64,000 bases of DNA, from the IMG/VR virus record IMGVR_UViG_3300015263_000969, positions 1,440 through 65,439 of that record. The stretch is one strand, 5' to 3'. This document shows, one piece after another, positions 26,900 to 42,100 of the stretch. How positions within the stretch are numbered: the first letter of the stretch is position 1; each line of letters opens with the position of its first letter. This DNA comes from a virus (lineage: Duplodnaviria; Caudoviricetes). The notes below the pieces were generated by a model. That model was not told where the DNA came from. It searched no databases and saw only the letters and a list, made by a program, of their open reading frames with translations. The translations under genes were made by a program, and so were the position numbers.

Positions 26900-27736
26900 C
26901 TACACCTGCACCACGACGCCGTATCCGGTCGGCGCGGATGGGTTGCTGGTTGGAAGTGCCTCATGACCGCCGAAATTCGCGACGTTGTTGAACAATTCAA
27001 GACATCCTCGCTGACCATCAAGCGTGTGGTCGCATCCTGCGAAGACGTCGACGGCATCGCTCGTAGCCAGCAACCTGAACGGGACGTCGATCGTGATGGT
27101 CGTGCCGCTCTGAGTGATCACGGTTCGCGCGTCGCCGTCAGACGTCCGCGTGATCTTGCCATCCCGAGCCCAACTATCCGGCTTGCCGCTGATCGACGAC
27201 ACCGTGATCGTGAGCCCATCAGACGAGATTGCTGTCACGGTCGGCGAGATCTTGAACGAGTCCTCATCGACGCCGCACCCGGGACTGTATAACTGATGCG
27301 GACAGTTTCGTTGCGCGACCAGCACGGGGAACTGACGGTCGAATACTTCGTCGCTGCGATTGGGTACGCGCAGACGCACGAGCACGTCCTCGGTGGACAA
27401 GCTGCCGATGTACCCCTTCCAGAGCTGCCGAGCCTCTGGGTCGTCTTCGTGGAAGGCGCGCAGCGTGACAAGCGCGTCGATCGGCGGAATGCCGTTTGCG
27501 CGCAGAGATTCGGCAAGCGCGTTGTCGCGCGCGATCGTGATGGTGACTTCGCGGACCTTTCCGACCTGCGCCAGGGTCCGCGGCCCGCAACTGATCGCGA
27601 CAGCGGCATACGTCTGCCCACCGAACACGACGTCCTCATCGTGAGACGTGAAGCGATACGTCTCGGTCGGCAGTTCGATGTCGTAGATCTCGATCGGGCG
27701 TTGGTCGGTGCCGGTCTCACGGGCCGCGAAGGACAT
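26900..27736 (-). CDS. Baseplate hub protein (DUF2163/BR0599-like)
   Basis: YRFTSHD...QRNCPHQLYSPGCGV...AGCDHT...C..LFNNVANFGG. Confidence 0.85.
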   Translation of the reverse strand: MSFAARETGTDQRPIEIYDIELPTETYRFTSHDEDVVFGGQTYAAVAISCGPRTLAQVGKVREVTITIARDNALAESLRANGIPPIDALVTLRAFHEDDPEARQLWKGYIGSLSTEDVLVRLRVPNRSDEVFDRQFPVLVAQRNCPHQLYSPGCGVDEDSFKISPTVTAISSDGLTITVSSISGKPDSWARDGKITRTSDGDARTVITQSGTTITIDVPFRLLATSDAVDVFAGCDHTLDGQRGCLELFNNVANFGGHEALPTSNPSAPTGYGVVVQV

Positions 27737-27764
27737 ACCTCACGGTCGCCCGCGGTGCCGTGGT

Positions 27765-27774
27765 GGGGCGATTT
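27765..27774 (-). promoter_or_regulatory. Late-promoter motif AAATCGCCCC (hub gene)
   Basis: Motif-N17-GACCGT-5nt-ATG 27736. Confidence 0.75.
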
Positions 27775-27782
27775 GTCGCCGG

Positions 27783-29748
27783 TTACGCAGTGCGGATCGA
27801 CCCGGTCCGCACGAGCGCATTCCACGCCTCAGCCACATCGCGGCGCGCGGCGCGGCACCCGGCCTCGAGCGCGAGGCGGCAGCGCCACGCGAGATCGCGC
27901 TCCTCCTGCGTCATGCTCGGCAGCGCGGTGAGCCACGCCTGCACTTGGCGGTTCTGGGCGGGGGTGAGCGTGTCGGCGTCCGTACTCGGGAGGCCGAGGA
28001 GCGCGGCGGCGCGGAGGCGCTCGGCCGGGAGGACCGGCGCGCTGGGGTGGTCATCGCAGCCATCGGCGGGATCGGCGTCGTAGCCGCAAACCTGGCAGAC
28101 GTGGACCGTGCGGGTGAGCGGGGCAGCGGTCGGCATGAGCACAGACTAACGCCGTACCTCCGAATCGTCAAGATATTCGTGAGGCACGATGTCGATCCGC
28201 CTAACCTTGCGGCACTCCTCGGACATCCCGGCCGCGCGCCGGGCGATCCGCCGCAGGTGCGAGAGCAGCGGCACGCCCTCTGGGCATGGATCGGCGGTCA
28301 GGAGCGACCGAACCCACGCCGAGATCCCGCCCTCGCTTGCGACACGCTCGTACGCAGCGCGCTCCTCGTCGGACGCTCGCAGGCTCACCGCATGGCCCGG
28401 GGCGAGCCGCACGGAGAGGAAGTGCGGGCGCTGTACCGCGGCGCGGGGGCGCCCGGGCTTTCGCCGCGCGCCGCCGGCTACGAGCTTGCCGCGCGCCTGG
28501 CGCACCGCCTCACGCGTCACCTTGTACTGGCGCCCGGCCTCGGCGTCGGAGATGTCGGCGCCGATCGCGAGGAGCGCGGCGGCTCGCGCGCGCTCGGCTG
28601 GCGCGGCGGGGCGGAGGAGCGGGTCGAGCGGGAACTTCGGGCTGGTCATGGGTAGCTCCCCGGTCGCCCGACATGGATCGCAGTAGCGATGCCGCGCTCC
28701 TCGGTCATGAGGTAATCGAGGCCGGCGCGCTTGAACGCGCAGCGGCCCAGCTCGTAGGCGCCGTATGTGCCGACCGCGGACGGGATCGACGCCGTGAGCC
28801 AGCCCGGGCGATCGGGACACGGGCACCACACAAGTGGGATTGGCCAGTCGATAGCCGGCGGGCTGGCTGCGTAGCTGGCGATGAGGCTGTTCAGGTACTC
28901 GGGTGTCATGTCGGTCCATCCTGCGCCATCGGGCGCGGTTGCAAGGTCACGCGGTCTTCGCGGACGCGATCCGGGCGGCAACCTCTGCGGTCCACGCCTC
29001 CCAGTTCGTGTGCGCGGCGCGCCGGGTCGCGGGGCCGAGGCCGCCTCCGACACCGGCGGACGCGTCGATGTCTACGGCGGTCATCCCGTCTCGGGCTGCG
29101 TTGTCGGGCGTGGTTAGCCCGTCGGCGAGCATCCACACCGCCCGGCGCGCGGCACGAGCGATCCAGCGCTCCTTGGCGATGTCGGGGCGGCGCATCACCG
29201 ACCCCACGCCGTGCGCTTGTGGCGCGCGAGCTCGGCGCGGTCCCGATCGGTGATCGCGCGAACCTCAACGCGTCGCAGACCTGTCGCGTAGTCGCAGCAC
29301 ACGCGCTCGGTGCCATAGCAGTAGATCGCCGGGCCAGTAGCGGCGACGTGGGTCGCGACGTCGATGCGCGCCAGCTCGCGGGGGAGGAGCTGGCGGTCGA
29401 CCTCGCGAACCGCGAGGCGGTGGAGCGCGGCGTAGGTCGGCATGGGGGGCTCCGTAATGGGGTGGGTTAGGCGGCGGCGAGCCACTCGAGCATCGCGGCC
29501 ATCTTGGCATCCGCGAGGCGGCGGGCGGCGGCCTCGCCGGTCACGCTCTTGCCGGTGGACGCCCATCGACCGCCCTTGCTGCCCGCCCACGAGACGCGGA
29601 AGGTCTTGGCGCCGGTGATGACGATGACGACCTCCACCGCGCCGCTGCCGAGCGACGCGTAGCGCTTCTCGCGGACCACCGAGTCGGAGCGGTCGGCGGT
29701 GACGATGGTGACCGTCGTTCCGTTCGTCAGCGTTTCCGTGTTCGTCAT
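27783..29748 (-). CDS. Accessory small genes (27783-28136 Zn-ribbon; 28146-28649 HTH/RHH regulator; 28646-28909; 28947-29194; 29195-29443; 29467-29748)
   Basis: Short ORFs with own promoters; 28146-28649 has QYKVTREAVRQ and SLRASDEERAAYERVA..GGISAWVR. Confidence 0.55.
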
Positions 29749-30714
29749 GTGTCTATTGATAGCAACGTACCTCGCAAACGTCAAGCATGAATCTGAGGTA
29801 CGCGAGAAGTGAGGCTAACTACGCGCAACATCCGGCGATCCGGCGAGCCTTCGGGTCACACCCGACGAGGCCGCACGCGGTTTCGCAGTCCCGGTGCTCG
29901 TCGTCGGGGTCGGTGCAACCGTCGGCGGCCAACCCAGCACCGGCCTCGCGCCGGCCGGCCTCGATGCTCCGCCGATTTACGTATGCCTGCCAGCATCCGA
30001 TCGACGGCGCCCACCGGAACCCGCAGCCCTTGAGCCGCTCGCACGTCTCCGCGTCGGGCTTGCCCGGGAAGAACAGCCGCACCCGGTTGTCGGCCTGGCT
30101 AACCTCGAGCCACGCGCGCTCTCCTTGGATCGTCTCGTCGGGCGCAGCCTTGGCGGCGCCAACGGCCTCGATGCGGGCGCGGATCCGGCGGATGTTCGCG
30201 CCGTTGTTCTTGAGCTCGAAGTCCGCGAACCCGATTCGGCCGGCGAAATCCGGCGCGAGCAGATCGCGGGCGACGCGCTCCGGGAGACCGAGGGCGGCAA
30301 GTGCGGCCACCGGCTTTGCCTCTAAAGTGCCAGTTGCCTCAATAGTCCTCAGCGCTGCCTCAAAAGGTCGCGGGAGTGACCTGGCCGCGGTTCTCCGACG
30401 AGGATCGAGCCGCGCGCGTTCCGCTTCCCACTGTCGGACTGACCGAGTAGCGTAATCGGCTCACGCGCCACTGGCACTTTCGCCACGGCGCAAGCGGCCC
30501 GACCGGTGCGTCAACACCGGCCGAGCCTAGGAGCCACGATGCGTAGAGCACATCGTAACCCCCGGCAGAGGCTACAGAAGTCCCGCACCACCTACCACCC
30601 CTCCATCGACGTCATCCTGGACGTCCTGCGCCGGATGGACCGCCGGCAGGCCATGCGCCTGATCGAGGCCGTCGCTGCGCTGGTGAGCGCCACGGCGAAG
30701 GGAGGGCGGTAGCC

Positions 30715-31497
30715 ATGCTCGACGAGACCGCCCTGCGCGCCTACCTCGAGCGCATCCTCGGCTGGTCTGCCGGGCAGGCAGCGGCCGTCGAGAGCGCGCT
30801 CGGGGCGCTCCGGCTGGCCCTCCTCCACGGCGTGACCATCGTCCTCCTCGGGGAGTCGGACCTGGCGCCCATCGCCCGCGAGCTGCACCGGCGGGCGTTC
30901 GGCGCGGGCCAGCCCTTCGTCGTCGCGGACCCGCGGCGCGGCGACGTGCCGGCCACCGCCCGGACGCCCGCGAGCCGGGCCACCGGGCTCGGCGCCCTCC
31001 ACGCGGCCCGGGGCGGCACCCTCGCCCTGCGCCTGCGGCGCCTGCCCGAGGACGTCTCGATGACGATCGGCCTGGCGCGCGAGCCCGGGGCCGACGTGCG
31101 CGTGATGCTCCTCGGGGACTCGCGGCGCGACCGGCACCCGTTCGTGAGCCCGGCGCCGATCATGGTCCCCTCGCTGGACACGCGCGCCGACGAGCTGGGG
31201 CGCATCGTCGACGAGTACGCGGCTGACGCTACGCGGGCGCTCGGCGTGGGGCCGGAGCGCTTCACCGCCTCCGATCGCGCCTGGGTCCTCCAGCACGCGG
31301 CCGAGAGCCTGCCCGTCATCGAAGCGGCGACCCAGCGGCTCGTCGCCCTGAACATGTCGCGGACCACCGACGAAGCCTCCGCCGCCCTCGGCCTCCGCGG
31401 GTCCACGCTCCGGCGCTGGCGGATCCAGCGCATCCGGCGCAGCAAGGGCGGCGGCGGCGTGCGGAGCGCCGGGCGCTGGATGCGGAGGGCGTCGTGA
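30715..31497 (+). CDS. Degenerate sigma54-activator-like AAA protein with C-terminal Fis-type HTH
   Basis: IVLLGESD..IARELH...QPFVVAD...AARGGTLAL...ASAALGLRGSTLRRW; no GKE Walker A or GAFTGA. Confidence 0.6.
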   Translation: MLDETALRAYLERILGWSAGQAAAVESALGALRLALLHGVTIVLLGESDLAPIARELHRRAFGAGQPFVVADPRRGDVPATARTPASRATGLGALHAARGGTLALRLRRLPEDVSMTIGLAREPGADVRVMLLGDSRRDRHPFVSPAPIMVPSLDTRADELGRIVDEYAADATRALGVGPERFTASDRAWVLQHAAESLPVIEAATQRLVALNMSRTTDEASAALGLRGSTLRRWRIQRIRRSKGGGGVRSAGRWMRRAS

Positions 31498-31817
31498 ACG
31501 AGCGCGCTCGCGAGTTCTGCGCCGCCATGACCCGGTGGCTCGACGCATGCGGCTCGGGCGTGGTCCGCTCGGTGAGCGTCCAACGCGTCGGCACCTGGAC
31601 CGTCATCAAGGTCGGCGCCACGAGCGACGAGACCGCGCGGCTCATCGCGGCCGAGATGGGGCTCACCCAGGCGCGCACGCCGCAGAAGGGCCGCGTCTGG
31701 TGGAGGGAGTACGTCGCCACCACCGAGGGCGCCACGATCCTCGTTGCCGGGCCGACGCACAGCTTCGAGGAGCCGGAGGACTGGCCGGGGCGGCGAGTGG
31801 GGACGTTTCCGAGCTAA
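31494..31817 (+). CDS. Hypothetical transposon passenger protein
   Basis: GTGA-coupled to the upstream gene; 107 aa. Confidence 0.55.
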   Translation: MNERAREFCAAMTRWLDACGSGVVRSVSVQRVGTWTVIKVGATSDETARLIAAEMGLTQARTPQKGRVWWREYVATTEGATILVAGPTHSFEEPEDWPGRRVGTFPS

Positions 31818-31891
31818 AACGAAGAACGGCGCGCTCGTCGTCGCGGCCAGGTCGGTGCATGACGTCGGTGCTGCTCGCTGCCGATCTGGTT

Positions 31892-32044
31892 CTGCACCAC
31901 CTGCGGAGCTTGGCTCGGCCTGCACCTGCTGCGCACTCCGGTTGTACCTGCATGTACTGCATGTTGGAGGTGGTCCTGCACCTCCTGCGGATGTCGCTTG
32001 ATCCTGCACGTCCTGCCGTGTAATGTTCCTCCTGCACCTCCTGC
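31892..32044 (+). repeat. Six CTGCA-N4-CTGC repeats, exact 28-bp period, unique spacers
   Basis: Starts at 31892, 31920, 31948, 31976, 32004, 32032. Confidence 0.92.
31998..32026 (+). promoter_or_regulatory. sigma70-type promoter embedded in the 28-bp array
   Basis: TTGATC-N17-TAATGT; repeat 5 lies in the spacer; AGGAG RBS directly after repeat 6. Confidence 0.6.
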
Positions 32045-32056
32045 AGGAGTTACCGA

Positions 32057-33100
32057 ATGTCGACAGGTTTGCAAAAGATCATGGATACTTACGATCGCGT
32101 AATCGAAGAGGGGCACGTTCAGGACAAGGGGCAGGGGTTCCGGTCCTATGCGATCTCCAACCTCCGCGGCGGCGTGGGCAAGTCGTCAATCGCCTTCAAC
32201 CTGGCGTACGAGGTCTCTCGCACGAACTCGCTGCTCACGGCAGATGTCTGCCCTCAGACGAACTTCACCGAGATGCTACTCGGTGGCTACAAGACGACGG
32301 CGAACATCTACGACGCGCTGAAGCCGGTCATCCTCGGACCGGCCTTCGGCGAGGAGCCGGAGGATATCTCCTACCGGATCAGCCAGCACTGTGATCCGTT
32401 CAAGGGCGGACGGGCCGCGTTCGCGATCCCCGGCAACGCGGAGCTGTTCGCCTTCCCGTCGACGCTCTACGCGCAGCTCGACAAGGCGTGGGGAATGAAC
32501 AACCGGACCGCGGTTGCCAAGCTCCTCCGCGGTCTGAAACAGATCCTGGACAGGGAAGCCAAGGACAAGGACGTGAGAGCCGAGAAGATCTTGATCGACA
32601 CTTCGCCCTTCTATGCCGGAGGCACGCATCTCGCGTGGTGTGCCGTCGAAGCGCTCATCGTGCCCGTGCGCGTCGACGAGCATTCGGTCGAGTCGCTGGG
32701 CCTCCTCTTCAAGATGCTCTCGGACCCGGAACGCGACTTCCTGCAGTGGAACGAACGGGCCGGTGACCTGCCAGGCCCGAAGATCGCCGCGATCGTGATG
32801 ACGATGGTCGGCGCGAAGAACCAGAGAAAGAACACGCCAGACCGCGCCTCCACCATGTACATCGAGCGCGCCCTCGAACTGGCGGAGGCGCACGCGGATC
32901 TCTTTGCGGTGGATCCCAGCGATGCCTTCGTGATCACCGACGACTTCCATTCGGCGGGCCGCATCAGCGGCGCGAAGCGGAAACCGATCTCGATGCTGGA
33001 GGTCGGCAGCTTTCATACCGTCGAGAACAGGCGCTTGCAGGTGAACCGCTCGGTGACGAGGTACCAGAAGGAGCTGCAGTACCTCGCCAGCGTGATCTGA
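32057..33100 (+). CDS. parA: ParA/Soj-family ATPase
   Basis: ISNLRGGVGKSS deviant Walker A, ADVCPQTN, ILIDTSP. Confidence 0.85.
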   Translation: MSTGLQKIMDTYDRVIEEGHVQDKGQGFRSYAISNLRGGVGKSSIAFNLAYEVSRTNSLLTADVCPQTNFTEMLLGGYKTTANIYDALKPVILGPAFGEEPEDISYRISQHCDPFKGGRAAFAIPGNAELFAFPSTLYAQLDKAWGMNNRTAVAKLLRGLKQILDREAKDKDVRAEKILIDTSPFYAGGTHLAWCAVEALIVPVRVDEHSVESLGLLFKMLSDPERDFLQWNERAGDLPGPKIAAIVMTMVGAKNQRKNTPDRASTMYIERALELAEAHADLFAVDPSDAFVITDDFHSAGRISGAKRKPISMLEVGSFHTVENRRLQVNRSVTRYQKELQYLASVI

Positions 33101-33127
33101 TCTCCCTTCACGAGAGGAATCGCCACC

Positions 33128-34393
33128 ATGGACGCTGCTCTCGACGCTCGCCATCAGCGCGCTCTTGCTCTCGTCGCCAGCAAGCGCGCCAGCATCAAGC
33201 ACATGGCGGGCGCGCGGTGGCTGGTCCCGTCGCAGTCCAGCGCGAGCGGCGGCTACGTCGTCGATGCAGACGCGAACACGTGCTCCTGCCCGGACCACGA
33301 GGAGCGGGGCGTGCGCTGCAAGCATATCTGGACCGTGGCCATCATCCGGCAGGAGATCTCCATGCCCGACGGGTCGGTCGTGATGACCGAGACCACGGTC
33401 GCCGCGGCGGTCACCGCGACGGTTACCACGCCGCCCCGCGTCACCTACAAGCAGGCGTGGCCGGCGTACAACCGCGCCCAGGCCGAGGAGGGCGCGCGCG
33501 TCCAGCTTCTCCTACGCGCGCTCTGCGATGGGATCGTCGAGCCCCCGCAGGCGAAGGGCCGGCCCCGTCTGCCGCTCGCTGACGTCGTCTACAGCGCCAC
33601 GATGCAGGTGTTCGGCGGCATGAGCGGGCGCCGGTCCACGAGCGACACGCGCGCGCTGGCCGAGCGGGGTCTCGTGCGGCGGGCGCCGAGCTACAACTCC
33701 ACGTTCCGCTACCTCGCGGGCGCCGAGCTGGCGCCGCTCCTCAAGACGCTGGTCCACGAGGCGGCGGCCCCGCTCCGGGCCGTGGAGACCACGTTCGCGA
33801 CCGACTCCACCGGGTTCGCCATGAACACCTACGCGCGCTGGTTCGACGAGAAGCACGGGGGCGAGAAGCGGTGCCAGCGCTGGATCAAGCTCCACGCGCA
33901 GGTGGGCACGGTGACGAACGTGATCGCGTCCGTCGAGGCGACCGAGAGCAACGTGGGGGACGTCGTGATGCTCGCCCCGCTCCTCGCGTCTGCGGTGGAG
34001 CGCGGGTTCACCGTGCGCGAGCTGAGCGCCGACAAGGCGTACCTCGCGAACGACGTGCTCACGGCCATCGAGGCCGCGGGCGCGGTCCCTTACATCCCCC
34101 TGAATGCCAACAGCCGGCCGACGGGCAAGAGCGCGGCGTGGCGCCGCCTGTACCACATGTTCGAGGCGCGGAACGACGAGTTCCTGGCTCACTACCACCG
34201 GCGCTCGAACGCCGAGAGCACGTTCAGCATGGTCAAGCGCAAGTTCGGCCCATCGGTGCGCGCCAAGACCCCGCCCGCGCAGATCAACGAGGTGCTGCTC
34301 AAGTGCATCTGCCACAACCTCTCCGTCCTCGTGCACGCGATCCACGAGTTGGGGATCGAGCCCTCCTTCTGGTCGCGCCTGGAGGCCGCGTAG
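33128..34393 (+). CDS. DDE transposase (IS5/IS903-like) with N-terminal SWIM zinc finger
   Basis: CSCPD...CKH SWIM; FATDSTGF, WIKLH, LSADKAY, YHRRSNAESTFSMVKRKFG. Confidence 0.9.
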   Translation: MDAALDARHQRALALVASKRASIKHMAGARWLVPSQSSASGGYVVDADANTCSCPDHEERGVRCKHIWTVAIIRQEISMPDGSVVMTETTVAAAVTATVTTPPRVTYKQAWPAYNRAQAEEGARVQLLLRALCDGIVEPPQAKGRPRLPLADVVYSATMQVFGGMSGRRSTSDTRALAERGLVRRAPSYNSTFRYLAGAELAPLLKTLVHEAAAPLRAVETTFATDSTGFAMNTYARWFDEKHGGEKRCQRWIKLHAQVGTVTNVIASVEATESNVGDVVMLAPLLASAVERGFTVRELSADKAYLANDVLTAIEAAGAVPYIPLNANSRPTGKSAAWRRLYHMFEARNDEFLAHYHRRSNAESTFSMVKRKFGPSVRAKTPPAQINEVLLKCICHNLSVLVHAIHELGIEPSFWSRLEAA

Positions 34394-34395
34394 CG

Positions 34396-34692
34396 ATGCC
34401 CCGTCGTGACCTGTCCCTCGACGAGCAAGCGAACGTCCTCGCGGCCCTGCGCATGCTGCGCGTCAAGCTCGGCGGAGCCAACTGGCTCAACGTGGAGCGC
34501 GCGCTTCCCATCGCGCACAGCACGCTCGCCGAGATCCTCGCCGGGCGCTCCGAGGTGAGCGCCGCCGTGGCGTTCCGCGTTGCCAAGGTGCTCGACGTGT
34601 CCCTCTACCACGTGCTCTCGGGCGAGGCGCTGGGGGACGTCTGCAAGCACTGCGGACGGTCTGCGTCCGAGCCATCATCGCGGATGGGCTGA
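34396..34692 (+). CDS. XRE-like HTH regulator with C-terminal CxxC
   Basis: LPIAHSTLAEILAGRSEVSAAVAFRVAKVLDVS...CKHCG. Confidence 0.7.
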   Translation: MPRRDLSLDEQANVLAALRMLRVKLGGANWLNVERALPIAHSTLAEILAGRSEVSAAVAFRVAKVLDVSLYHVLSGEALGDVCKHCGRSASEPSSRMG

Positions 34693-35482
34693 GCGCTGCT
34701 CTCGCCTGCGCCGCTCGTACCGCTCTCGCATCGCGATGAGCCACGCGGGCACCGGCGGCGGGGGCGACGGCGGGTCGCGATACGGGTCGGCCACCGAAAG
34801 ATGATGCCCGGGCCGATCCCGGGCCGATCCCAACGCTGCCTCAAAAGTCGGGCCGCTGCCTCAAAAGTCGGCGCTCCGACGGGGTTCTGAGGCAAAGCCA
34901 CGGCCACCTGCGCATCGGCACCGGCTCGGGCATGCTTGCGGATCGCGGCGTTCGCGGCCGTCATCTGCGCTTGCTTCGCCTCTGCCACGGCGAGATTGGC
35001 GCGCAGCCGCTTGACCGCGTCCGCATCGCCGGACATGATCGGGCGCAGCTCCGGGCACAGTGTCTTGCGGATCGCGTCGAGCGCGCGCTCGCGGTACTCA
35101 AGCAGGTCTTTCGTGCATCTGTCAGCCGCCACGCCGCGCTTCGCCTGGCGACGCGCCGGAAAGTTGCTCGGCCCGGCGATCACGGTCGACATCGTGCGCG
35201 ACTTGGCGCCGAGCATCGCGACGTAGCGCTCCCGGTAGCCGGCGCGGTAGCGCGCAAACTCGGTCTCCAGCGTCGCACGCTTCTCGTCGGTGTTCGCCAG
35301 CTTGGCGAGCGTGTCGCGGTCGCGCGAAAGCGTGCTCGCGTAGCTGGCGAGCTCCTGATCGGCGCGCTGCTCAGGGACGAACGAGGCTCCGGCGTGTGCG
35401 GCACGAGCGAGATCGAGCGGGATGTCGTCGGCGAAGTTGTGCATGGTGGTCCTCCGTGATGAATGGTTGCGGGCTGCTGGGT

Positions 35483-35971
35483 TCACGCGTATGTCGCCGC
35501 GGCCTCGCCCTTGCGCAGATCCTCGGCGCGGGCCTCGACGAGCGCCGCGGCGATTCCGGCGTATGGGCCGCACTGATCGAGCGCCGCCGCGGCTTTGCGC
35601 TTGTCGCCGGAGAGTGCCGCGTCCGTGGCGACCGCGACCGCGACGGGATCGATCGAGCCGGCCGGGATCACGATCTCGATCCCCATGTCCTGACCCATAA
35701 AGCGCGAGAGAATCACGAAAGCCGAGCCGGAGGCCGTGCGGCGCATGACGGCCGGGCCGCCGTAGCGGGGATGCTCGCAGCCGGCGACCTTACCACTGAT
35801 CAGATCGACGACGACGACGTTCATGATGTCGCCGACGTAATGCGCGCGGACCCACTCCGGGCCCGCCTCGATCACGGTGACCCTGCGGCCCGTCCACTCG
35901 CGGAAGCAACCAAGCAACGCCTTGATGCCCTTGGAAGTCTTGCTGACCTGCGTGCGCGTCGTCTTCGTCAT
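35483..35971 (-). CDS. Hypothetical protein, first gene of the accessory island
   Basis: Leaderless start after TTGACG-N17-TAGATT. Confidence 0.65.
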   Translation of the reverse strand: MTKTTRTQVSKTSKGIKALLGCFREWTGRRVTVIEAGPEWVRAHYVGDIMNVVVVDLISGKVAGCEHPRYGGPAVMRRTASGSAFVILSRFMGQDMGIEIVIPAGSIDPVAVAVATDAALSGDKRKAAAALDQCGPYAGIAAALVEARAEDLRKGEAAATYA

Positions 35972-36061
35972 GCCCTCAATCTACGTCTGTACCTCTCAAT
36001 CGTCAAGCGATATTCGAGGCACTTGCGCAGGTGAGCGTAACTGCGTGCAACAGCGCCGGAT

Positions 36062-37291
36062 TTACCCCTGCACCACGCGCGCGGCCAACGACGCCTCGAA
36101 CCCGACGCCCCTCCACTGCACCTGCACCTCATCGCTCGCGAGCCGGCACGTCTCGAGAAACTCCACGCGAGCGAGTGTCCCGGTGAACGATGAGTCGAGC
36201 GCGAGATCTTGCGTCGCGCCGCCATCCGAGCAGCTCTGCACCTCGCGATACGCGACGGCCCCGTCCGTCTTCACGAGCTTGATCCGTCGGTGCGCCAGCG
36301 AAGGGAACCACGCGTTGACGTAGTCGACGGTGCTGCTCGCTGTGCTGATCGTCAGCGTGCCGCTCGACGCGTCGCCGACGGGCACGAGGTCGGGTCGCCC
36401 AGTCGGGAGCAGGAACGTGCCCCACGATCCACGGATCTCGTGGAGCATCGCTTTGAGCCACTGCCAGTCCGCGCGCTTCGAGCTCGAGACGCGGATCGCC
36501 CGGCCCCAATCCGCGACGTCGTATGCCTGGAGCGATGAAAGGCGCGCGCCGAGGTCAACAACCGCTCCGCCAGCATACAGCGGCTGGCTCGGTTGCTCGG
36601 CAGCGTTGCCCCAGTCCCATACCGGCAGCGAGTCGTAGGTGGTTACGGACGATCCAGTTCCAGGGACAGACCCTAGAGCGAAACCGTTGCGCTGAGCGCG
36701 GGCCGCAACCTGCCACCGGCCGGCGCCGACGCGCCAGCGCGATAGTCCCTGCTCCGGCTCGAGCAGCACGCCGACGGTTGGCATGATGCGCGCGCCGTCG
36801 ATCGCGACGGCGGTCAGGTCCTCGTCAACGCTGATCGAGTTGCCGCTGGCGTTCTGCACGACCGCCTCGCCGGTGGTGCCGTCCGGCGCTACTACGACGA
36901 CTCGCTGGCCGGCGATTGCCCAGTCGCAGAGCGATAGGTCGTGCACGGTTACGGCGCCGGCCGTCGATGATGCGACCGTCAGATCCTCGTACGGCAGCGC
37001 GAGCTGAAACAGCGGAGCAGCGGCAGTCTCCTCGGCGAGCGTCGTCAGGATCCTCCGGTGCTGCGCATCAGAGAGGAGCGTTGAGAACGTGTAGCTCTGG
37101 CGCGGCTTGCCGAGGATCGCCGCGCGCGTCTCGATGCCGGACCACGCCTTGCGGACCGTGGTCTTCCACGCGTAGGTCACCGTTGCGCCGGCTTCGACGT
37201 CTATCGCGAACGTGGCCGCACCGGCGCCCTCCGCGGCGGGAAGGATCAACTGGAACGCGTCGGCCTGAAAAGCGTCCGCCTGGAACGCCAT
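36062..37291 (-). CDS. Distal tail protein (DUF2460-like)
   Basis: YAWKTTVRKAWSGIETRAAI...PRQ; WLKAMLHEIRGSWGTFLLP; position after the tape measure. Confidence 0.65.
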   Translation of the reverse strand: MAFQADAFQADAFQLILPAAEGAGAATFAIDVEAGATVTYAWKTTVRKAWSGIETRAAILGKPRQSYTFSTLLSDAQHRRILTTLAEETAAAPLFQLALPYEDLTVASSTAGAVTVHDLSLCDWAIAGQRVVVVAPDGTTGEAVVQNASGNSISVDEDLTAVAIDGARIMPTVGVLLEPEQGLSRWRVGAGRWQVAARAQRNGFALGSVPGTGSSVTTYDSLPVWDWGNAAEQPSQPLYAGGAVVDLGARLSSLQAYDVADWGRAIRVSSSKRADWQWLKAMLHEIRGSWGTFLLPTGRPDLVPVGDASSGTLTISTASSTVDYVNAWFPSLAHRRIKLVKTDGAVAYREVQSCSDGGATQDLALDSSFTGTLARVEFLETCRLASDEVQVQWRGVGFEASLAARVVQG

Positions 37292-37294
37292 GGC

Positions 37295-38638
37295 CTACGC
37301 CACCGTCTCGACGTAGAAGTTATGGAGATCGAGCGCGCACGCGGCCACCGTGGCGTTATTGGTGCGCCAGGCCTGGGCCGTGAGGAGCGTCGTCGACGAC
37401 GGCAGGTTTGCCGCGTTCGTGATCGTGCCACTCGCCGGCGCCACGCCGCCCCCGACGCGAATGAGCGTGTAGCCGACGCTAGATGCGTTCGGCGCGCAGT
37501 AGAGGTGCAGTTCGTAGATGTCCGCGTTCGTCGTGTTGATCGGGAAGTTCGCGCCAAGATTGGAGCGTGCCTGCGCCGAGCCGCCCGCGGCGTAGAGTTG
37601 CATTGTGGTGTCGCCGCCGTTGCAGCCGACGCCGATCAGATTCGTGAGCGTGCTCGGCTCGACATTGGTAGGCGCGCTGGCCGTGCCGATGATGCCGATG
37701 AACATGCGCGCGTCGGCGACGAGGACAGCGTCGGCGACGTTGAATCGCCACACCAGGTGAAAGCCGCCGCGCCCCGCCGCGTCGCCGCGCCACCATGTGA
37801 GGACGCCGTGCCGGGCGCCGGCGATGGATCCGGCAGATACACCGCTCACGAGACCGAGCCTTCGCGATCCCGTCACCGTGCCGGTGGCGGCCGGTGCGCG
37901 GGCTGTCGCGGTACCGACGTATGAAAATGCGGCGAGGCCCATCAGCGAAGTGTTCGTCGAGTTAGGCAGCGGCTGCCACCACACGACCTTACGCGCCCCG
38001 AGGCATGCCTGAACCGGCGCGGTGAACCCGTCGGGGTCCGTCATCGCGAGCATCTGCCGCCCGCCGAGCGCGTAGCCACTCGCCTTCACGGTGCCGGCGC
38101 TCGGAGTTGTCGGCGTGCCCGACGTGAACACGAGGTCTCCGCCGTTGGTGCCGACGTTCGCCAGTGCGGCCCACGAGCCGCCGGTGCGCGTCAGGAGAAC
38201 GCCGTCCGTGCTGGACACCCAGTCGAATAGCTGTGAGGCGGTGACCGCCTCTGGCGCACCGGTTCCCGCCGTGTTGCGACCGATCACGCGTTGTGTGGCG
38301 AGGTTAGCGAGGGCGGCGAGTGCAACGGTCCCCGCCCCGAGGTCCGCGCCGGATCCGCTGGCCGCTATGGCAGCGAGCCCGAGCGCAGTGCGCTGATCGG
38401 CCGTAGTCGAGGCGCCGATTACGGAACGCCCGGCAGCCGTGCACGCAATCTCCTCGATGTCGCCGGCGCCGGAGCTCGAGCGACCGAGCACCTTGTCCGT
38501 CGCCGAGACGTTCTGGATCTGGGCATAGGTGACCGTGTCGTTGTCGATCACATGCGCCGCGTTCCAGTCGCTCGGCTTGACAAGTGTATTGTCCGGGCCG
38601 TCGCCGATCGCAGATGTGAACGCATGCGTGATCGTCAT
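37295..38638 (-). CDS. Tail fibre/minor virion protein
   Basis: ITHAFTSAIGDG...PSDWNAAH N-terminus; Gly/Ala/Thr-rich repeats; beta-rich C-terminus. Confidence 0.65.
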   Translation of the reverse strand: MTITHAFTSAIGDGPDNTLVKPSDWNAAHVIDNDTVTYAQIQNVSATDKVLGRSSSGAGDIEEIACTAAGRSVIGASTTADQRTALGLAAIAASGSGADLGAGTVALAALANLATQRVIGRNTAGTGAPEAVTASQLFDWVSSTDGVLLTRTGGSWAALANVGTNGGDLVFTSGTPTTPSAGTVKASGYALGGRQMLAMTDPDGFTAPVQACLGARKVVWWQPLPNSTNTSLMGLAAFSYVGTATARAPAATGTVTGSRRLGLVSGVSAGSIAGARHGVLTWWRGDAAGRGGFHLVWRFNVADAVLVADARMFIGIIGTASAPTNVEPSTLTNLIGVGCNGGDTTMQLYAAGGSAQARSNLGANFPINTTNADIYELHLYCAPNASSVGYTLIRVGGGVAPASGTITNAANLPSSTTLLTAQAWRTNNATVAACALDLHNFYVETVA

Positions 38639-38953: not shown

Positions 38954-41900
38954 TTACCGCCCGGTTGTCCGTCCGCGCACCGACGGATCGTTCCGTCGGC
39001 GGTGGACCTGGTAGTAGGTCTCGCCGTCATTCTCCATGGCGCGGCGCGCGGCTGCGGTAGCGTCGTCGACGATCACCACGTTCACCCGCGGCGCTGGGGC
39101 CGGAGCACTTGCTTGCGAGGCTGGAGCCTGGCCGGGCGGCGTGAACTGTACGTGCTCGCGAGGCGAGAGGAGGAACGTCACGGGCACGCTGTCCGGGGGG
39201 CCAGACCCGGGCACAACATACTCGCCGCCGGAGGCATGAGCGCCGCCGTAAATGCCAAGGGCTTCGAGCCCGGCGGTGAGCCCGCCGATGACGCCTGGTC
39301 CGCCTCCACCCGCCCGTTTGAACAACGCGGTCAACGCTTGATGTAGGAGCAAGCGAGTCAGTTCCCGCAGTACAAAGTCAACGAATCCGCGAAGACTCTC
39401 TTTCCCAGCCTTCGCAAATTCGTCCCATCCATGGGACATCGCAACGGTTATATCGAGAAACGAATCCTCAAGCATGCGATAGCCTGACAGCAGGTCACGC
39501 TCCATGAGCGCGCCAATATTAGTGATCTCTTCCTCGATGGATTTGCCAGCTCGCTTTACTCCATCGGCCATGGAGCGTCCGGCGATAGTCGCGTCTTCGT
39601 AGGCGCTCTCGATTTTACGAATCTCTTCCTCGAACTGCTTGGCCGTGATGACTCCAAACTGGAGCTGCTTGATAGCCTCATCGACGCCCTGATTCAGTGT
39701 CGCGCGCGCGCCGGTTTCGCGGTATTTCGCGGCCTCTTCCGCGTACCTTCGCGCCTCGAGTTTTGAGGTGATGTCGGATTGCACTTCGGGCGTGATCGTG
39801 ACGCCCTTTCGCCGAAGATCCGCGGTCGCCTCGAGCAGGTCGTTGTACTTCTCGCGTTCCTTGCTGGATAGCGACAGCGACGCGACCTCCTTGTCGACCT
39901 CGCGTATCCACGCTTCGAGTGGGAAGCGCGCATCAGCCAGGCGCGCCGCGGTTTCGAGGATGATGTCCTGCCCGTCCTCGAGCGAGAGCATGAACTCGCC
40001 GGTCTTCGGGTTCACCGCCTGCGTCGCCCTCGTGACGATATCGACAGCCTTCTCGTACTTGGTGAGCGCCTCGGTCGCCGGGTTCGAGGCGCGCTCGATG
40101 CCTTCGAGCTGGCGAGCGAGCTTGTCGTACTCGCTTTGGGCCTTCTTGAGGGCCTTCTCGTCGACGTGCGGAGCCGCGTGTCCGGTTCCTGTCGACTTCA
40201 CGTACGCTCCGGTATCACCGAGGCCGAACCCGCCCAGTCCGCCCAGGATGTCCCGCTCGAGCGCATTGCGCTGCCGGGTCGCGGTCGCCGAACGCTCGTA
40301 GATGCTATCGACGTAGTCACGCGCGAAGCTCGTGTTGCGCCATTCGTCGAAGTTGTTCGCGAGATTCCGACCAAGATCACGCGGGGCGTTCGCGAGCGGG
40401 TTCTTGAAGCTGAGGTCGACGGCTGGGATCTGGAATCCGCTGCTCTGCGCGCGCTCCTTGGCGAACTGCATCAGCGCGTCGCCGGTTAACCCCTTGGCTT
40501 GTCCCTCCTTGAGGGCCGCCGCGATGCCGGCGCTGTCGATCTTGCTGGTCACGAGCTGCACCGCAGCGAGGACGCCGTTCACCGCGCCGATCAGCCCGTT
40601 CACGATCATCTCGATGCCGCCGACGAGCACACGCGCCATCTCGATGAGCACTGCACCGACGGTTTTCGGAATGCCGATAAACACGTCGATGATCGACTTG
40701 CCCAGGAATCGGAACATCCCGATGGCCGAGTCAACGAACGCCGCGATGCCGGTAAGCACGGTCCGCAGCGAGAAGTCGATGCCGGTGCCATCAAGCCCAT
40801 CGGAGAATGCACCGGTCAAGCGAGCCCAGGCTCCGCCCAGGAAGTCGAGCACGGCGCTGCCGAGATCTTTGATGTCGCTCCACAGCTCGCGGAGCACATC
40901 TGAGACCTTCACGATGCTACCGGCGTCGGCGTTCAGTTCGTCGCCAAACTGCCGGAGCAACGACACCGCCGTCGCCAGCGCGACTGCGAACGCGATGATC
41001 GGATGCGCGAGCACCGCCGCGCCGAGCGCCTTCACGAGCCAGACGATCTTCTCGAGGACGAGTAGTCCGAGGAGCACCTCGCCAACGCCGATGATCACTC
41101 GCCCAAAGGTCTCGAAGTGATCGGCAACGTATGCCAGCGAGCGCGCGAGCCCCTGCAACACACCGCTGCCGGACCCGGTCTCGCCAAAGAACTTTGCCGC
41201 GGCGTTCTTGATCCGGAGGAGGCTCTGCTCCGTAGTGGGGAGCATCTTGTTGAACTTCTCCTCGAGCGCCGGTCCAGCCTTTCTGAACGCGTCGATCAGG
41301 ATGTCAGCGGTGAGCTTGCCGTGCTTGCCCATGGAGATGAACTCGGCGCGCGTGTGCCCGCTTGCGTCCGCCAGCGCGCCGACGAGCTGCGTCGCATCCT
41401 TGAGCACGACCCGGAACTCGCGCCCGGTCAGCGCGCCGAGCTCGAACGCATGGGTCAGCTCCATCATCGTCATCCGCGCTTCCTGCGCGGTGGAGCCGGA
41501 TACTACGAGCCCCTGCGCGATCTGCTTCGTGAGATCGACGACCTCCTGCTGCGACACGCCGAGATGCGCGGTGGCCGCGGCGACCTTTTGATACGTGGCC
41601 GCGGTCTCCTCCCATTCCGAACGCGTATCCTGCGCGACCTTGAAGGTTGCCTCGAGCACGCCGCGGAGGTTGTCCTCGTCGTCAGTGACCGAGCGGATGC
41701 GGTTCGAGATCGCCGTGTACTCGTCGGCTAGGTGCCCGATCTTCGCCACCGTATGAATCCCGGCGTAAGCTGCGATCAGCCCATGAACCTCCGAGGCAAG
41801 AGCCGATGTCGATGCCGCGGCACGATGCATCGATGACGAACCAGCCCGGCCGGCGGCATCCGCAGCGGTCCCGGCCTGCTTCGCCGCCCCAGCGAACCGA

Positions 41901-42100
41901 TCTGCCTCGACGCGCACCCGACTAGTTGCCCTGGCGGCGGCGTCGGCTGCAATGGATACGTCACGCATGCCGCGAGCGCCGGCGGCCCCAGCCCGAGAAG
42001 CTGAGCCCTCTGCCCGCTCGAGCTGAGAGGTAAACCGTCCGAGAGCATCACGCGCCTGTCCAGTACGGACTTCCACCTCAATGGCGTAAGTGTCGCTCAT
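38954..42100 (-). CDS. Tape measure protein
   Basis: 1048 aa, Ala-rich helical; ADEYTAISNRIRSVT...VAQDTRS tape domain; HASGG C-terminal motif. Confidence 0.92.
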   Translation of the reverse strand: MSDTYAIEVEVRTGQARDALGRFTSQLERAEGSASRAGAAGARGMRDVSIAADAAARATSRVRVEADRFAGAAKQAGTAADAAGRAGSSSMHRAAASTSALASEVHGLIAAYAGIHTVAKIGHLADEYTAISNRIRSVTDDEDNLRGVLEATFKVAQDTRSEWEETAATYQKVAAATAHLGVSQQEVVDLTKQIAQGLVVSGSTAQEARMTMMELTHAFELGALTGREFRVVLKDATQLVGALADASGHTRAEFISMGKHGKLTADILIDAFRKAGPALEEKFNKMLPTTEQSLLRIKNAAAKFFGETGSGSGVLQGLARSLAYVADHFETFGRVIIGVGEVLLGLLVLEKIVWLVKALGAAVLAHPIIAFAVALATAVSLLRQFGDELNADAGSIVKVSDVLRELWSDIKDLGSAVLDFLGGAWARLTGAFSDGLDGTGIDFSLRTVLTGIAAFVDSAIGMFRFLGKSIIDVFIGIPKTVGAVLIEMARVLVGGIEMIVNGLIGAVNGVLAAVQLVTSKIDSAGIAAALKEGQAKGLTGDALMQFAKERAQSSGFQIPAVDLSFKNPLANAPRDLGRNLANNFDEWRNTSFARDYVDSIYERSATATRQRNALERDILGGLGGFGLGDTGAYVKSTGTGHAAPHVDEKALKKAQSEYDKLARQLEGIERASNPATEALTKYEKAVDIVTRATQAVNPKTGEFMLSLEDGQDIILETAARLADARFPLEAWIREVDKEVASLSLSSKEREKYNDLLEATADLRRKGVTITPEVQSDITSKLEARRYAEEAAKYRETGARATLNQGVDEAIKQLQFGVITAKQFEEEIRKIESAYEDATIAGRSMADGVKRAGKSIEEEITNIGALMERDLLSGYRMLEDSFLDITVAMSHGWDEFAKAGKESLRGFVDFVLRELTRLLLHQALTALFKRAGGGGPGVIGGLTAGLEALGIYGGAHASGGEYVVPGSGPPDSVPVTFLLSPREHVQFTPPGQAPASQASAPAPAPRVNVVIVDDATAAARRAMENDGETYYQVHRRRNDPSVRGRTTGR

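Follow-up and report, generated by a model that had tools for sequence, protein, structure and literature searches.

A conserved heptamer lattice ahead of an orphan ParA-like ATPase gene in a phage contig, possibly read by the ATPase itself

Here we report an array of short direct repeats that precedes the gene of an orphan ParA-like ATPase in a 64-kb stretch of phage DNA (the whole stretch analysed, hereafter the window). The array is interpreted as a conserved cis-element of a compact mobile cassette, consisting of the box lattice and the ATPase gene, and is probably read by the ATPase itself; we give this reading a probability of roughly 0.55. Among 61 loci with a homologue of the gene, which cover at least eight phyla as well as a Ralstonia phage, 57 keep both the boxes and their spacings upstream of it. 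The features of the region are as follows.

27737..36061, no strand assigned: insert of about 8.3 kb separating two tail genes that lie side by side in related phages
31891..32045, + strand: lattice of 12 boxes with a CTGC core, defined by the window sequence and the family-wide lattice
31998..32026, + strand: inferred promoter TTGATC-N17-TAATGT, from the sequence and from a position equivalent to that of strong promoters in homologues
32045..32049, + strand: ribosome-binding site AGGAG, from the sequence, 7 nt ahead of the ATG at 32057
32057..33100, + strand: orphan ParA-like ATPase of 347 aa, from profile, structure and family comparisons
33128..34393, + strand: transposase with a SWIM zinc finger and DDE_Tnp_1 (IS5-like), a separate unit adjoining the ParA cassette
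34396..34692, + strand: small HTH protein with a weak HTH_3 match and a C-terminal CxxC, a neighbour outside the ParA cassette

The six copies of CTGCA-N4-CTGC described in the initial annotation are present at positions 31892, 31920, 31948, 31976, 32004 and 32032 (span 31892-32044), and the five 15-nt intervals between them all differ, as listed there. Each copy is preceded by (T/C)C. The array forms six 14-nt double boxes, (T/C)CTGCA-N4-CTGC, with a period of 28 bp. The window contains seven matches to CTGCANNNNCTGC, against 0.90 expected (at least seven in 0 of 100 shuffles), of which six form the array and one lies at 34641, inside the HTH ORF. A repeat search recovered the 28-bp register as five copies of a 42-nt unit; with Tandem Repeats Finder, two 9-bp pieces were called but no 28-bp array, because the intervals are unrelated to each other. 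The start-to-start spacing of the 12 boxes alternates between 9 and 19 bp, and it is the sum of these spacings that yields the annotated 28-bp period. The real repeat unit is a heptamer box (family consensus ACCTGCA) on a 9/19-bp lattice, not a 28-nt repeat/spacer array, and in the whole window runs of at least four lattice-linked CTGC sites occur in this array alone.

In a first set of 47 homologous loci, the 200 bp before parA contain 292 CTGC sites (43 in shuffles), and 208 of the 246 distances between neighbouring sites are 19 bp (107), 9 bp (83) or 28 bp (18), each of which occurs about 0.2 times in shuffles. With at least two distances of 9, 19 or 28 bp as the criterion for a lattice, 44 of these 47 loci and 13 of 14 further loci have one. 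Some loci show the 19-bp spacing only and others only the 9-bp spacing; three loci whose protein carries the RLQVN motif described below, among them L043 and L089, have no clear lattice or could not be assessed. At the 47 loci no lattice was found in the region from -400 to -200 or on the opposite strand, and runs of at least four linked sites were absent from all 142 control loci, comprising three sets: loci of the SWIM/DDE transposase (0/46), metagenomic loci of an IS1-like transposase (0/80) and tail loci of related phages (0/16). The comparison of homologues proposed in the initial annotation thus gave periodic boxes with variable intervals, and this conservation supports its suggestion of a phased lattice for protein binding across the parA promoter.

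The predicted promoter of parA consists of a -35 hexamer TTGATC (31998-32003), a 17-nt gap and a -10 hexamer TAATGT (32021-32026). Double box 5 (32004-32016) fills the gap, double box 6 sits between the -10 hexamer and the ribosome-binding site, and the -35 hexamer overlaps a box. Of the promoter that had been placed astride repeat 5, the hexamers and their spacing are present, but the site was not called by a consensus promoter scan (7/12 matches) and is weak by consensus; it is inferred because its position equals that of much better promoters in homologues, which have strong TTGACC-N17-TATAxT promoters there (TTGACC-N17-TATACT in L001). The ribosome-binding site was correctly placed after repeat 6. 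CTGC occurs at, or inside the spacer of, the best promoter-like site in 36 of the 47 loci, and the majority of boxes lie upstream of the promoter. Since one box overlaps the -35 hexamer and another lies inside the promoter spacer, the array is predicted to be an operator, and possibly a centromere-like site as well.

The arrangement also bears on the earlier proposal of a miniature repeat/spacer array that is transcribed and cut into RNAs of about 28 nt. The exact 28-bp period and the unrelated 15-nt intervals of the window would suit such an array, but its unit is 7 bp long, the spacing changes from locus to locus between 9 and 19 bp, the intervals hold the -35 and -10 hexamers, and most boxes lie upstream of the promoter. 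An Rfam scan of 31500-32300 gave no match, the intervals have no further match in the window at up to two mismatches, and no cas-like gene was found among the neighbours. We therefore consider this explanation practically dismissed. A CRISPR-like array in the strict sense (repeats of at least 23 nt, unique spacers of similar size, a leader and cas genes) was likewise rejected because of the 7-bp box, the spacing that varies between 9 and 19 bp, the internal promoter and the lack of cas genes among the neighbours.

The 347-aa protein is a member of the ParA/Soj/MinD class of P-loop ATPases by predicted fold and profile. It matches AAA_31 in Pfam (E 3.6e-11; CbiA at its cut-off) and the ParA-like PHROG 164 (E 1.5e-35), and its predicted structure (pLDDT 88) is a Soj/ParA core with insertions and a C-terminal hairpin and helix, for which the top Foldseek matches are Soj, ParA, McdA and delta (TM by target about 0.77). 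The Walker A motif is RGGVGKS, with arginine in place of the signature lysine of the canonical deviant motif KGGxxK[ST]; this arginine is invariant in 24 of 24 sequences, and the second lysine and the serine are kept. ParA-like ATP-sandwich behaviour is assumed here. The N-terminal winged HTH extension of type Ia ParAs (about 100 aa) is absent, since strand 1 begins at residue 30 and is preceded by a single helix (residues 4-18); the SopA and RepA models of NCBIfam cover the ATPase core alone, with scores far below their cut-offs. More than a thousand proteins, at 50-80% identity, make up the family in very distant bacteria and phages; in a sample of 401 Myxococcota genomes, 2 have the gene. 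More distant clusters of ParA-like proteins, of 330-375 aa, were also observed. JGI labels the family BcsQ, probably because of the RGGVG motif.

The initial annotation treated ParA, transposase and HTH as one gene run, which did not hold as a functional unit. Neither the ParA gene nor the boxes occur beside any of 46 relatives of the SWIM/DDE transposase, the HTH gene always follows this transposase family (in 6/6 closest loci having neither ParA nor boxes), and the trio is repeated on one other contig only (L055); by sequence comparison, transposase and HTH are a unit separate from the ParA cassette. The CTGCANNNNCTGC match at 34641 codes for a conserved C-K-H-C motif of the HTH protein. The 'degenerate AAA-Fis protein' of the initial annotation was not recovered, as the ORFs scanned at 34605-36034 have no Pfam match, and PADLOC gave no match for ParA, transposase, HTH or four ORFs of the insert. 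The absence of a ParB gene noted earlier was borne out: among 50 loci no ParB-like or other partner gene is conserved beside ParA, apart from transposase-linked genes. Just two neighbours recur, an IS1-like transposase (adjoining ParA in 20/50 loci; so called because its score with NCBIfam transpos_IS1, 64 bits, is below the cut-off of 100, and that with Pfam DDE_Tnp_IS1, 28.3, above the cut-off of 24.1) and a small basic protein (12/50 loci); the remaining flanking ORFs are heterogeneous.

These neighbours offer two other candidate readers. A small adaptor, either the HTH protein at 34396 or the small basic protein, could read a type Ib-like centromere/operator and stimulate the ATPase in the manner of ParB or ParG. 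Repeat arrays over the parA promoter are a hallmark of type Ib loci, and genes for small DNA-binding proteins are found close to parA in the window, in L055 and in the 12 loci with the basic protein (HTH_3 in 6 of 150 flanking ORFs). Such a reader is nevertheless unlikely, because the HTH follows its transposase where ParA and boxes are both missing, the small basic protein is present in 27 of 80 IS1-like loci without ParA while boxes occur in none of 76 such loci, about half of the ParA loci have neither small protein, and two unrelated small proteins would have to read one heptamer. A predicted complex of an L044-type ParA with the small basic protein scored 0.00 (mark 0.32) and was weighed neither way. 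An N-terminal arginine peptide, considered as a feature shared by the HTH and the small basic protein, was rejected, since no such peptide is present in the window and the L055 homologue is without it as well.

Alternatively, the boxes could be transposase-binding sites and the ATPase a factor for transposon target choice or immunity, similar to MuB or TnsC. Three unrelated families of DDE transposases directly adjoin ParA in about half of the loci (IS1-like in 20/50 and SWIM/IS5-like in 2/50 loci, IS1595 in 2 of 150 flanking ORFs), and the IS1-like link turns up at scattered positions throughout the ParA tree (15 changes among 19 rows). To this extent the tie to transposition suggested in the initial annotation stands, but the boxes follow ParA and not the transposases: they are absent from the 76 IS1-like and 46 SWIM/DDE loci without ParA and retained at loci with ParA only. 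Moreover, neither the window module nor the IS1-type modules showed convincing terminal inverted repeats when their surroundings were searched, the gene is single-copy in 4 of 5 genomes, and unrelated transposases would need one common site. This role is accordingly improbable. The array was also rejected as a transposon end, which needs inverted sites at both ends and co-occurrence with a transposase; the window has a single array in one orientation, and 122 transposase loci without ParA lack it.

With no conserved partner, and with boxes that follow ParA and nothing else, the ATPase is the most likely reader, and we regard the chances that it binds its own lattice as roughly even. The 12 heptamer direct repeats, at spacings of 9 and 19 bp, would place successive boxes on nearly the same helix face. 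Given boxes at the -35 hexamer, in the spacer and between the -10 hexamer and the ribosome-binding site, occupancy would be expected to shut off parA transcription; the upstream boxes would allow cooperative loading and could also act as a centromere-like site, as in type Ib loci. The putative reading head is the C-terminal beta-hairpin and helix (residues 319-346), which carries the motif RLQVN; in the model, R326, Q328 and N330 face the same side of a hairpin strand. Against reading by the ATPase, known operator-binding ParAs use an N-terminal HTH, which this protein lacks, and a host factor or an unnoticed small ORF may take this part.

RLQVN is invariant in all 43 proteins with CTGC boxes and a full C-terminus. 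Within the Rhizobiaceae, box and hairpin change together: a clade of two loci (L048 and L049) has C[AG]CA boxes, still spaced by about 19 bp, and the hairpin RLEVY, whereas the sister locus L037 retains both RLQVN and CTGC boxes. The clade differs specifically at 10 positions that are conserved in the other proteins, and 4 of these lie in residues 319-332. An Aeromonas plasmid homologue (33% identical) has KATVN, no CTGC lattice and irregularly spaced AAAACG words. The covariation thus comprises a single evolutionary event together with one distant homologue, and the boxes are in any case linked to the gene. It also bears on a host-encoded DNA-binding protein as the reader, which would make expression of the cassette depend on host state. 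The lack of a conserved partner gene in the cassette would fit such a protein, but the same heptamer is kept in hosts of at least eight phyla and the box changes along with the ParA hairpin, so that we assign this explanation a low probability.

In the window, the cassette interrupts the tail genes of a phage contig as part of the 8.3-kb insert, which contains the ParA cassette, the transposase-HTH unit and unknown genes, with a GC content of up to 72%. The loci are nearly all chromosomal or within an integrating phage, and no homologue above 33% identity was found among 72,556 plasmids. This distribution, and a Soj-like fold unlike that of known initiators, makes it very improbable that the array is the iteron set of a replication origin, with the ParA-like protein as its initiator or a helper. 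In favour of that idea, direct repeats of about 19 bp with T-rich intervals before an autoregulated gene resemble iteron origins, and the 33% homologue lies on 5.9-kb Aeromonas plasmids with a separate canonical ParA and no annotated Rep. In other cases the cargo slots that the cassette occupies contain restriction, Fic, HD and PLD genes, and this placement suggests it as a candidate module by which mobile elements conduct conflict or maintain themselves; it may stabilise or position the DNA of its carrier, or exclude rival elements. The initial annotation did not recognise the architecture, and our literature searches found no description of this box lattice with an orphan ParA cassette; the available text of the RsoM1USA paper names a homologue a ParA family protein and adds nothing further.

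As a more far-reaching and doubtful proposal, the cassette could be a one-protein ParA system without ParB, in which the RLQVN hairpin reads the heptamer lattice at its own promoter and which moves as a self-contained 1.3-kb cargo between phage and transposon hot spots in at least eight phyla, tethering or positioning its carrier DNA or excluding competitors. In the usual view, a ParA ATPase depends on a partner, which both marks its cargo and triggers its activity. An ATPase that read the boxes itself would represent a minimal ParA machine and a simple setting in which to study how ParA couples specific and non-specific DNA binding; the same lattice recurs across very distant bacteria and phages with no conserved partner, and the pairing of ACCTGCA with R-Q-N of the hairpin is offered as a sequence-to-protein hypothesis.

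Type Ib partition loci with repeats that serve as centromere and operator include parFGH of TP228, delta/omega of pSM19035 with its heptads, and par2 of pB171. As in these loci, the gene of a ParA-class ATPase is preceded by a short direct-repeat array that overlaps its own promoter, and the 7-bp boxes resemble the omega heptads; unlike them, the cassette has no ParG, omega or ParB gene, its ATPase has 347 aa instead of about 200-300 aa, its boxes stand on a 9/19-bp lattice and are not contiguous, and its close relatives are not plasmid-borne, type Ib loci being residents of low-copy plasmids, which they stabilise. ParI, an orphan ParA of a Pseudomonas putida genomic island that destabilises IncP-7 plasmids (Miyakoshi 2012, as cited in PMC9178275), is likewise carried by a mobile element, and by analogy its exclusion effect suggests a possible role for a ParB-less cargo ParA; ParI has KGGVGKS where the cassette family has RGGVGKS, and the account of ParI in PMC9178275 mentions no box array. 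Walker A variants of ParA-class proteins without the signature lysine are described there for McdA (SGGQGKT) and BcsQ (RGGVGTT), the latter sharing its arginine with the cassette family; both differ in partners and roles (carboxysomes and cellulose synthase, respectively) and have no box array. Large (type Ia) ParAs such as P1 ParA and F SopA repress their own genes through an HTH (as outlined in PMC9178275), and the ATPase proposed here would similarly bind operator repeats at its own promoter, although in a cassette without N-terminal HTH, parB and separate parS, and with a C-terminal hairpin as the proposed reader.

The array upstream of the parA gene consists of six double boxes, (T/C)CTGCA-N4-CTGC, starting at 31892, 31920, 31948, 31976, 32004 and 32032, with five 15-nt intervals that are unrelated to one another. 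A pattern count over the whole window gave seven matches to CTGCANNNNCTGC per 64 kb versus 0.90 expected, a number reached in 0 of 100 shuffles; the seventh match (34641) lies inside the HTH open reading frame, where it codes for a conserved Cys-x-x-Cys stretch. The 28-bp register was recovered by a repeat search of the window, Tandem Repeats Finder returned 9-bp pieces only, and the boxes form strict 9 + 19 bp pairs. A run of at least four linked lattice sites occurs once in the window, which belongs to a 65-kb virus record in IMG/VR. The genes concerned are the following.

21450-26897, minus strand: J-like protein
26900-27736, minus strand: baseplate hub (Gp84_N and BR0599)
32057-33100, plus strand: ParA-class ATPase of 347 aa (Pfam AAA_31 and CbiA; PHROG 164)
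33128-34393, plus strand: IS5-like transposase with SWIM zinc finger and DDE_Tnp_1 domain (domain profile matches)
34396-34692, plus strand: small HTH protein (weak HTH_3 match; coding supported by third-codon-position GC)
36062-37291, minus strand: DUF2460-like gene
37295-38638, minus strand: tail-run gene
38954-42100, minus strand: tape measure

At E ≤ 1e-20, 1352 of 5507 candidate proteins belonged to the ParA family, the best 120 with 65-82% identity. Genome scans yielded two heavily overlapping sets of 54 and 69 ParA loci, assigned through record titles and tree labels to Pseudomonadota, Myxococcota, Acidobacteriota, Actinomycetota (including Mycobacterium), Bacteroidota, Chlorobiota, Verrucomicrobiota and Planctomycetota; a Peptococcaceae MAG holds a broken copy of the gene, and homologues are also found on two viral contigs. 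The gene was single-copy in four of five genomes checked and rare, being present in 2 of 401 sampled Myxococcota genomes. One MAG carries, besides the locus L001, a second cassette copy (L006); for most of its extent this copy is 96% identical to L001 in DNA, but it is full of stop codons (11 TGA, 3 TAG) and has partly decayed boxes.

The lattice was counted at 47 loci (46 and the window). L011 was omitted because it nearly duplicates L010, and L026 and L031 because their upstream DNA is too short; the partial genes L006, L007, L047 and L053-L058 and the distant L009 were also excluded. Within 200 bp upstream of the parA start codon there were 292 CTGC sites versus 43 in shuffles, and the 246 distances between neighbouring sites were mostly 19 bp (107), 9 bp (83) or 28 bp (18), each expected about 0.2 times from shuffles. 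At least two such distances were present at 44 of the 47 loci; no lattice was found on the opposite strand or in the -400 to -200 region of these loci. A second locus set added 14 new loci, 13 of them with the lattice and one (L089) with none upstream of parA. The core box across the family is ACCTGCA, and a T-rich stretch comes after it. Since the loci vary between single boxes at 19-bp steps only (e.g. L042, L113), box runs at 9 bp (L032) and 9 + 19 pairs, the 28-bp period is one particular form of a heptamer lattice with 9- and 19-bp steps. Locus L123 has, ahead of the usual 19/9 lattice, a recent local expansion of a single box and its interval: positions 1-120 hold five tandem 20-bp units that each include a CTGCA box.

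Runs of at least four linked sites were found at 39 of 57 ParA loci (partial ones counted), at none of 46 loci bearing SWIM/DDE transposases related to that of the window, none of 80 metagenome loci with an IS1-like transposase and none of 16 related phage tail loci. The array reported in the initial annotation is real and can be described more sharply, and the proposed check of homologous upstream regions showed that the boxes are kept in a 9/19-bp arrangement. Its reading as a miniature array processed into RNAs was rejected. The array is the conserved operator lattice of a ParB-less ParA cassette, and is perhaps centromere-like as well.

In the 160 bp upstream of parA, CTGC lies at or in the spacer of the best sigma-70-like site at 36 of 47 loci, and these best sites score at least 8/12 at 31 of 47. 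In the typical family promoter, TTGACC-TGCAnnnnCTGCAnnn-TAtaaT, one box shares bases with the -35 hexamer and the next box falls in the spacer. The window's TTGATC-N17-TAATGT brackets double box 5 and has the same position, but is weak: it was not called by a consensus promoter scan, and in a crude scan it scored 7/12, tied with another site. AGGAG stands 7 nt before the parA ATG at 32057. The layout has the anatomy of an autoregulated operator, from which we infer repression: when occupied, the boxes would block RNA polymerase.

An all-against-all comparison of the open reading frames around ParA at 50 loci (49 and the window) revealed no conserved partner gene beside it. Two neighbours recur: an IS1-like DDE transposase of about 295 aa (20/50 loci) and a small basic protein (12/50). 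The transposase gene is divergently oriented at most loci, where the array lies between the two genes; in L044, L046 and L051 it sits downstream. The other flanking frames (150 scanned of 173) are heterogeneous (HTH_3, 6; Peptidase_S24, 3; IS1595 transposase, 2; housekeeping enzymes). The link to the IS1-like transposase is spread over the ParA tree (19 rows; 15 changes, shuffled mean 14.8). For the reverse test, at least 598 metagenome stretches coded for the IS1-like transposase; among the best 80, no ParA gene lay within 2.5 kb, the small protein was present in 27, and none of the 76 with enough upstream DNA had the lattice.

The initial annotation had treated ParA, transposase and HTH gene as one run, a unit that did not hold: no ParA gene was found at the 46 loci of SWIM/DDE transposase relatives, and the trio recurs only in L055 (transposase 45%, HTH 35% identity). 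The six closest relatives (67-79% identity; Haliangiales, Kofleriaceae and Myxococcales MAGs) all have an HTH homologue within 5 bp after the transposase. For the transposases the reverse test is decisive: the boxes belong to ParA, the transposase and HTH gene are bystanders, and this pair and the IS1-like transposase with its small protein are separate units. The SWIM/DDE transposase and CxxC-ending HTH protein (33128-34692; L146-L151, L183) are a constant pair, present in several copies per genome in MAGs of Haliangiales, Kofleriaceae and Planctomycetes, and the most similar copies point to a myxobacterial host for the phage. The window also has, at 34833-34902, an element of about 65 bp that contains a GCTGCCTCAAAAGTCGG word twice and a hairpin (TGCCTCA...TGAGGCA). 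It is 77-98% conserved in L146-L151, where it lies about 1.2 kb downstream of the same transposase-HTH unit, and may represent an element end, a terminator or a small RNA.

The ParA protein itself is a candidate reader. Its modelled C-terminus consists of a beta-hairpin (319-328) and a helix (332-346), and RLQVN occupies the second hairpin strand in every one of the 43 CTGC-box ParA proteins whose C-terminus is complete. In the Rhizobiaceae pair L048/L049 the motif is RLEVY, and the boxes have a C[AG]CA core in place of CTGCA (17-19 bp spacing in L049, less regular in L048); their sister L037 retains RLQVN together with CTGC boxes. Ten positions at least 95% conserved in the 44 other proteins are changed in both L048 and L049, four of them within 14 residues of the hairpin (F319S, Q328E, N330Y, S332A). 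R326, Q328 and N330 alternate and so face one side of the strand; the base-reading residues of ribbon-type DNA binders likewise lie on one side. A homologue on small Aeromonas plasmids (33% identity) has KATVN and irregularly spaced AAAACG words, and the CTGC lattice is absent there. One such plasmid (L076; AP022266.1, 5.9 kb), which has no annotated Rep gene, encodes a canonical small ParA and its partner in addition to the large homologue. The covariation, one clean evolutionary contrast and one distant case, is suggestive but falls short of proof. With no partner found and one covariation event seen, recognition of its own boxes by the ATPase is the best-supported mechanism, with a probability of about 0.5.

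The cassette lies within an insert of about 8.3 kb (27737-36061) between the DUF2460-like and hub genes, recognised because the hub gene comes directly after the DUF2460-like gene, 34-57 bp apart, in all four related phage loci with both (L060, L061, L062, L065). The segment has genes on both strands and a G + C content of up to 72% versus about 65% around it; no terminal repeats were found. Homologues of its genes at 30715-31497 and 31494-31817 adjoin the transposase-HTH unit in L146, L147, L148 and L150. L147 has the gene order of the window, but a different 377-aa frame replaces array and parA, so the cassette occupies a variable slot. The uncharacterised gene at 30715-31497 contains a 22-bp tandem repeat (31397-31440; 1.9 copies).

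IS1-like elements (metagenome loci L194-L270) also have a variable slot, between the small basic gene and the transposase gene. Among 29 slot frames scanned, 8-9 encode HTH-ImmA/IrrE fusions and one each GmrSD, HD/HD_assoc, Fic, PLD and a ClpP-like protease. We read this cargo as typical of conflict systems, and the slot appears to be a hot spot for conflict-gene cargo, which weakly hints at a maintenance or exclusion role of the ParA cassette. The N-terminal peptide of the small basic protein, KRPRD..LA..IV, is joined to a different C-terminal domain at two Actinomycetota loci (L023:5037-5426; L039:5037-5450, minus strand) and may be a portable interaction module.

No description of the cassette was found in the literature searched, a collection with limited coverage of subscription journals. 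Ralstonia phage RsoM1USA encodes a homologue (59% identity) in the variable region after attP, named merely a ParA family protein in the excerpted text of its paper, and a review (PMC9178275) records a maintenance or exclusion role of this kind for the orphan ParA ParI. The window's ParA matched PHROG 164, 'ParA-like partition protein' (E 1.5e-35), and no NCBIfam model at its cut-off. Its Walker A motif is RGGVGKS, with the Arg invariant in 24 of 24 sequences. The AlphaFold2 model (24 homologues; pLDDT 88, pTM 0.90) is a single compact body, and Foldseek retrieved Soj, ParA, McdA and delta (TM by target about 0.77, 15-21% identity). Type Ia ParAs have an N-terminal HTH, whereas the predicted fold has one N-terminal helix and then strand 1 from residue 30, which leaves no room for such a domain.
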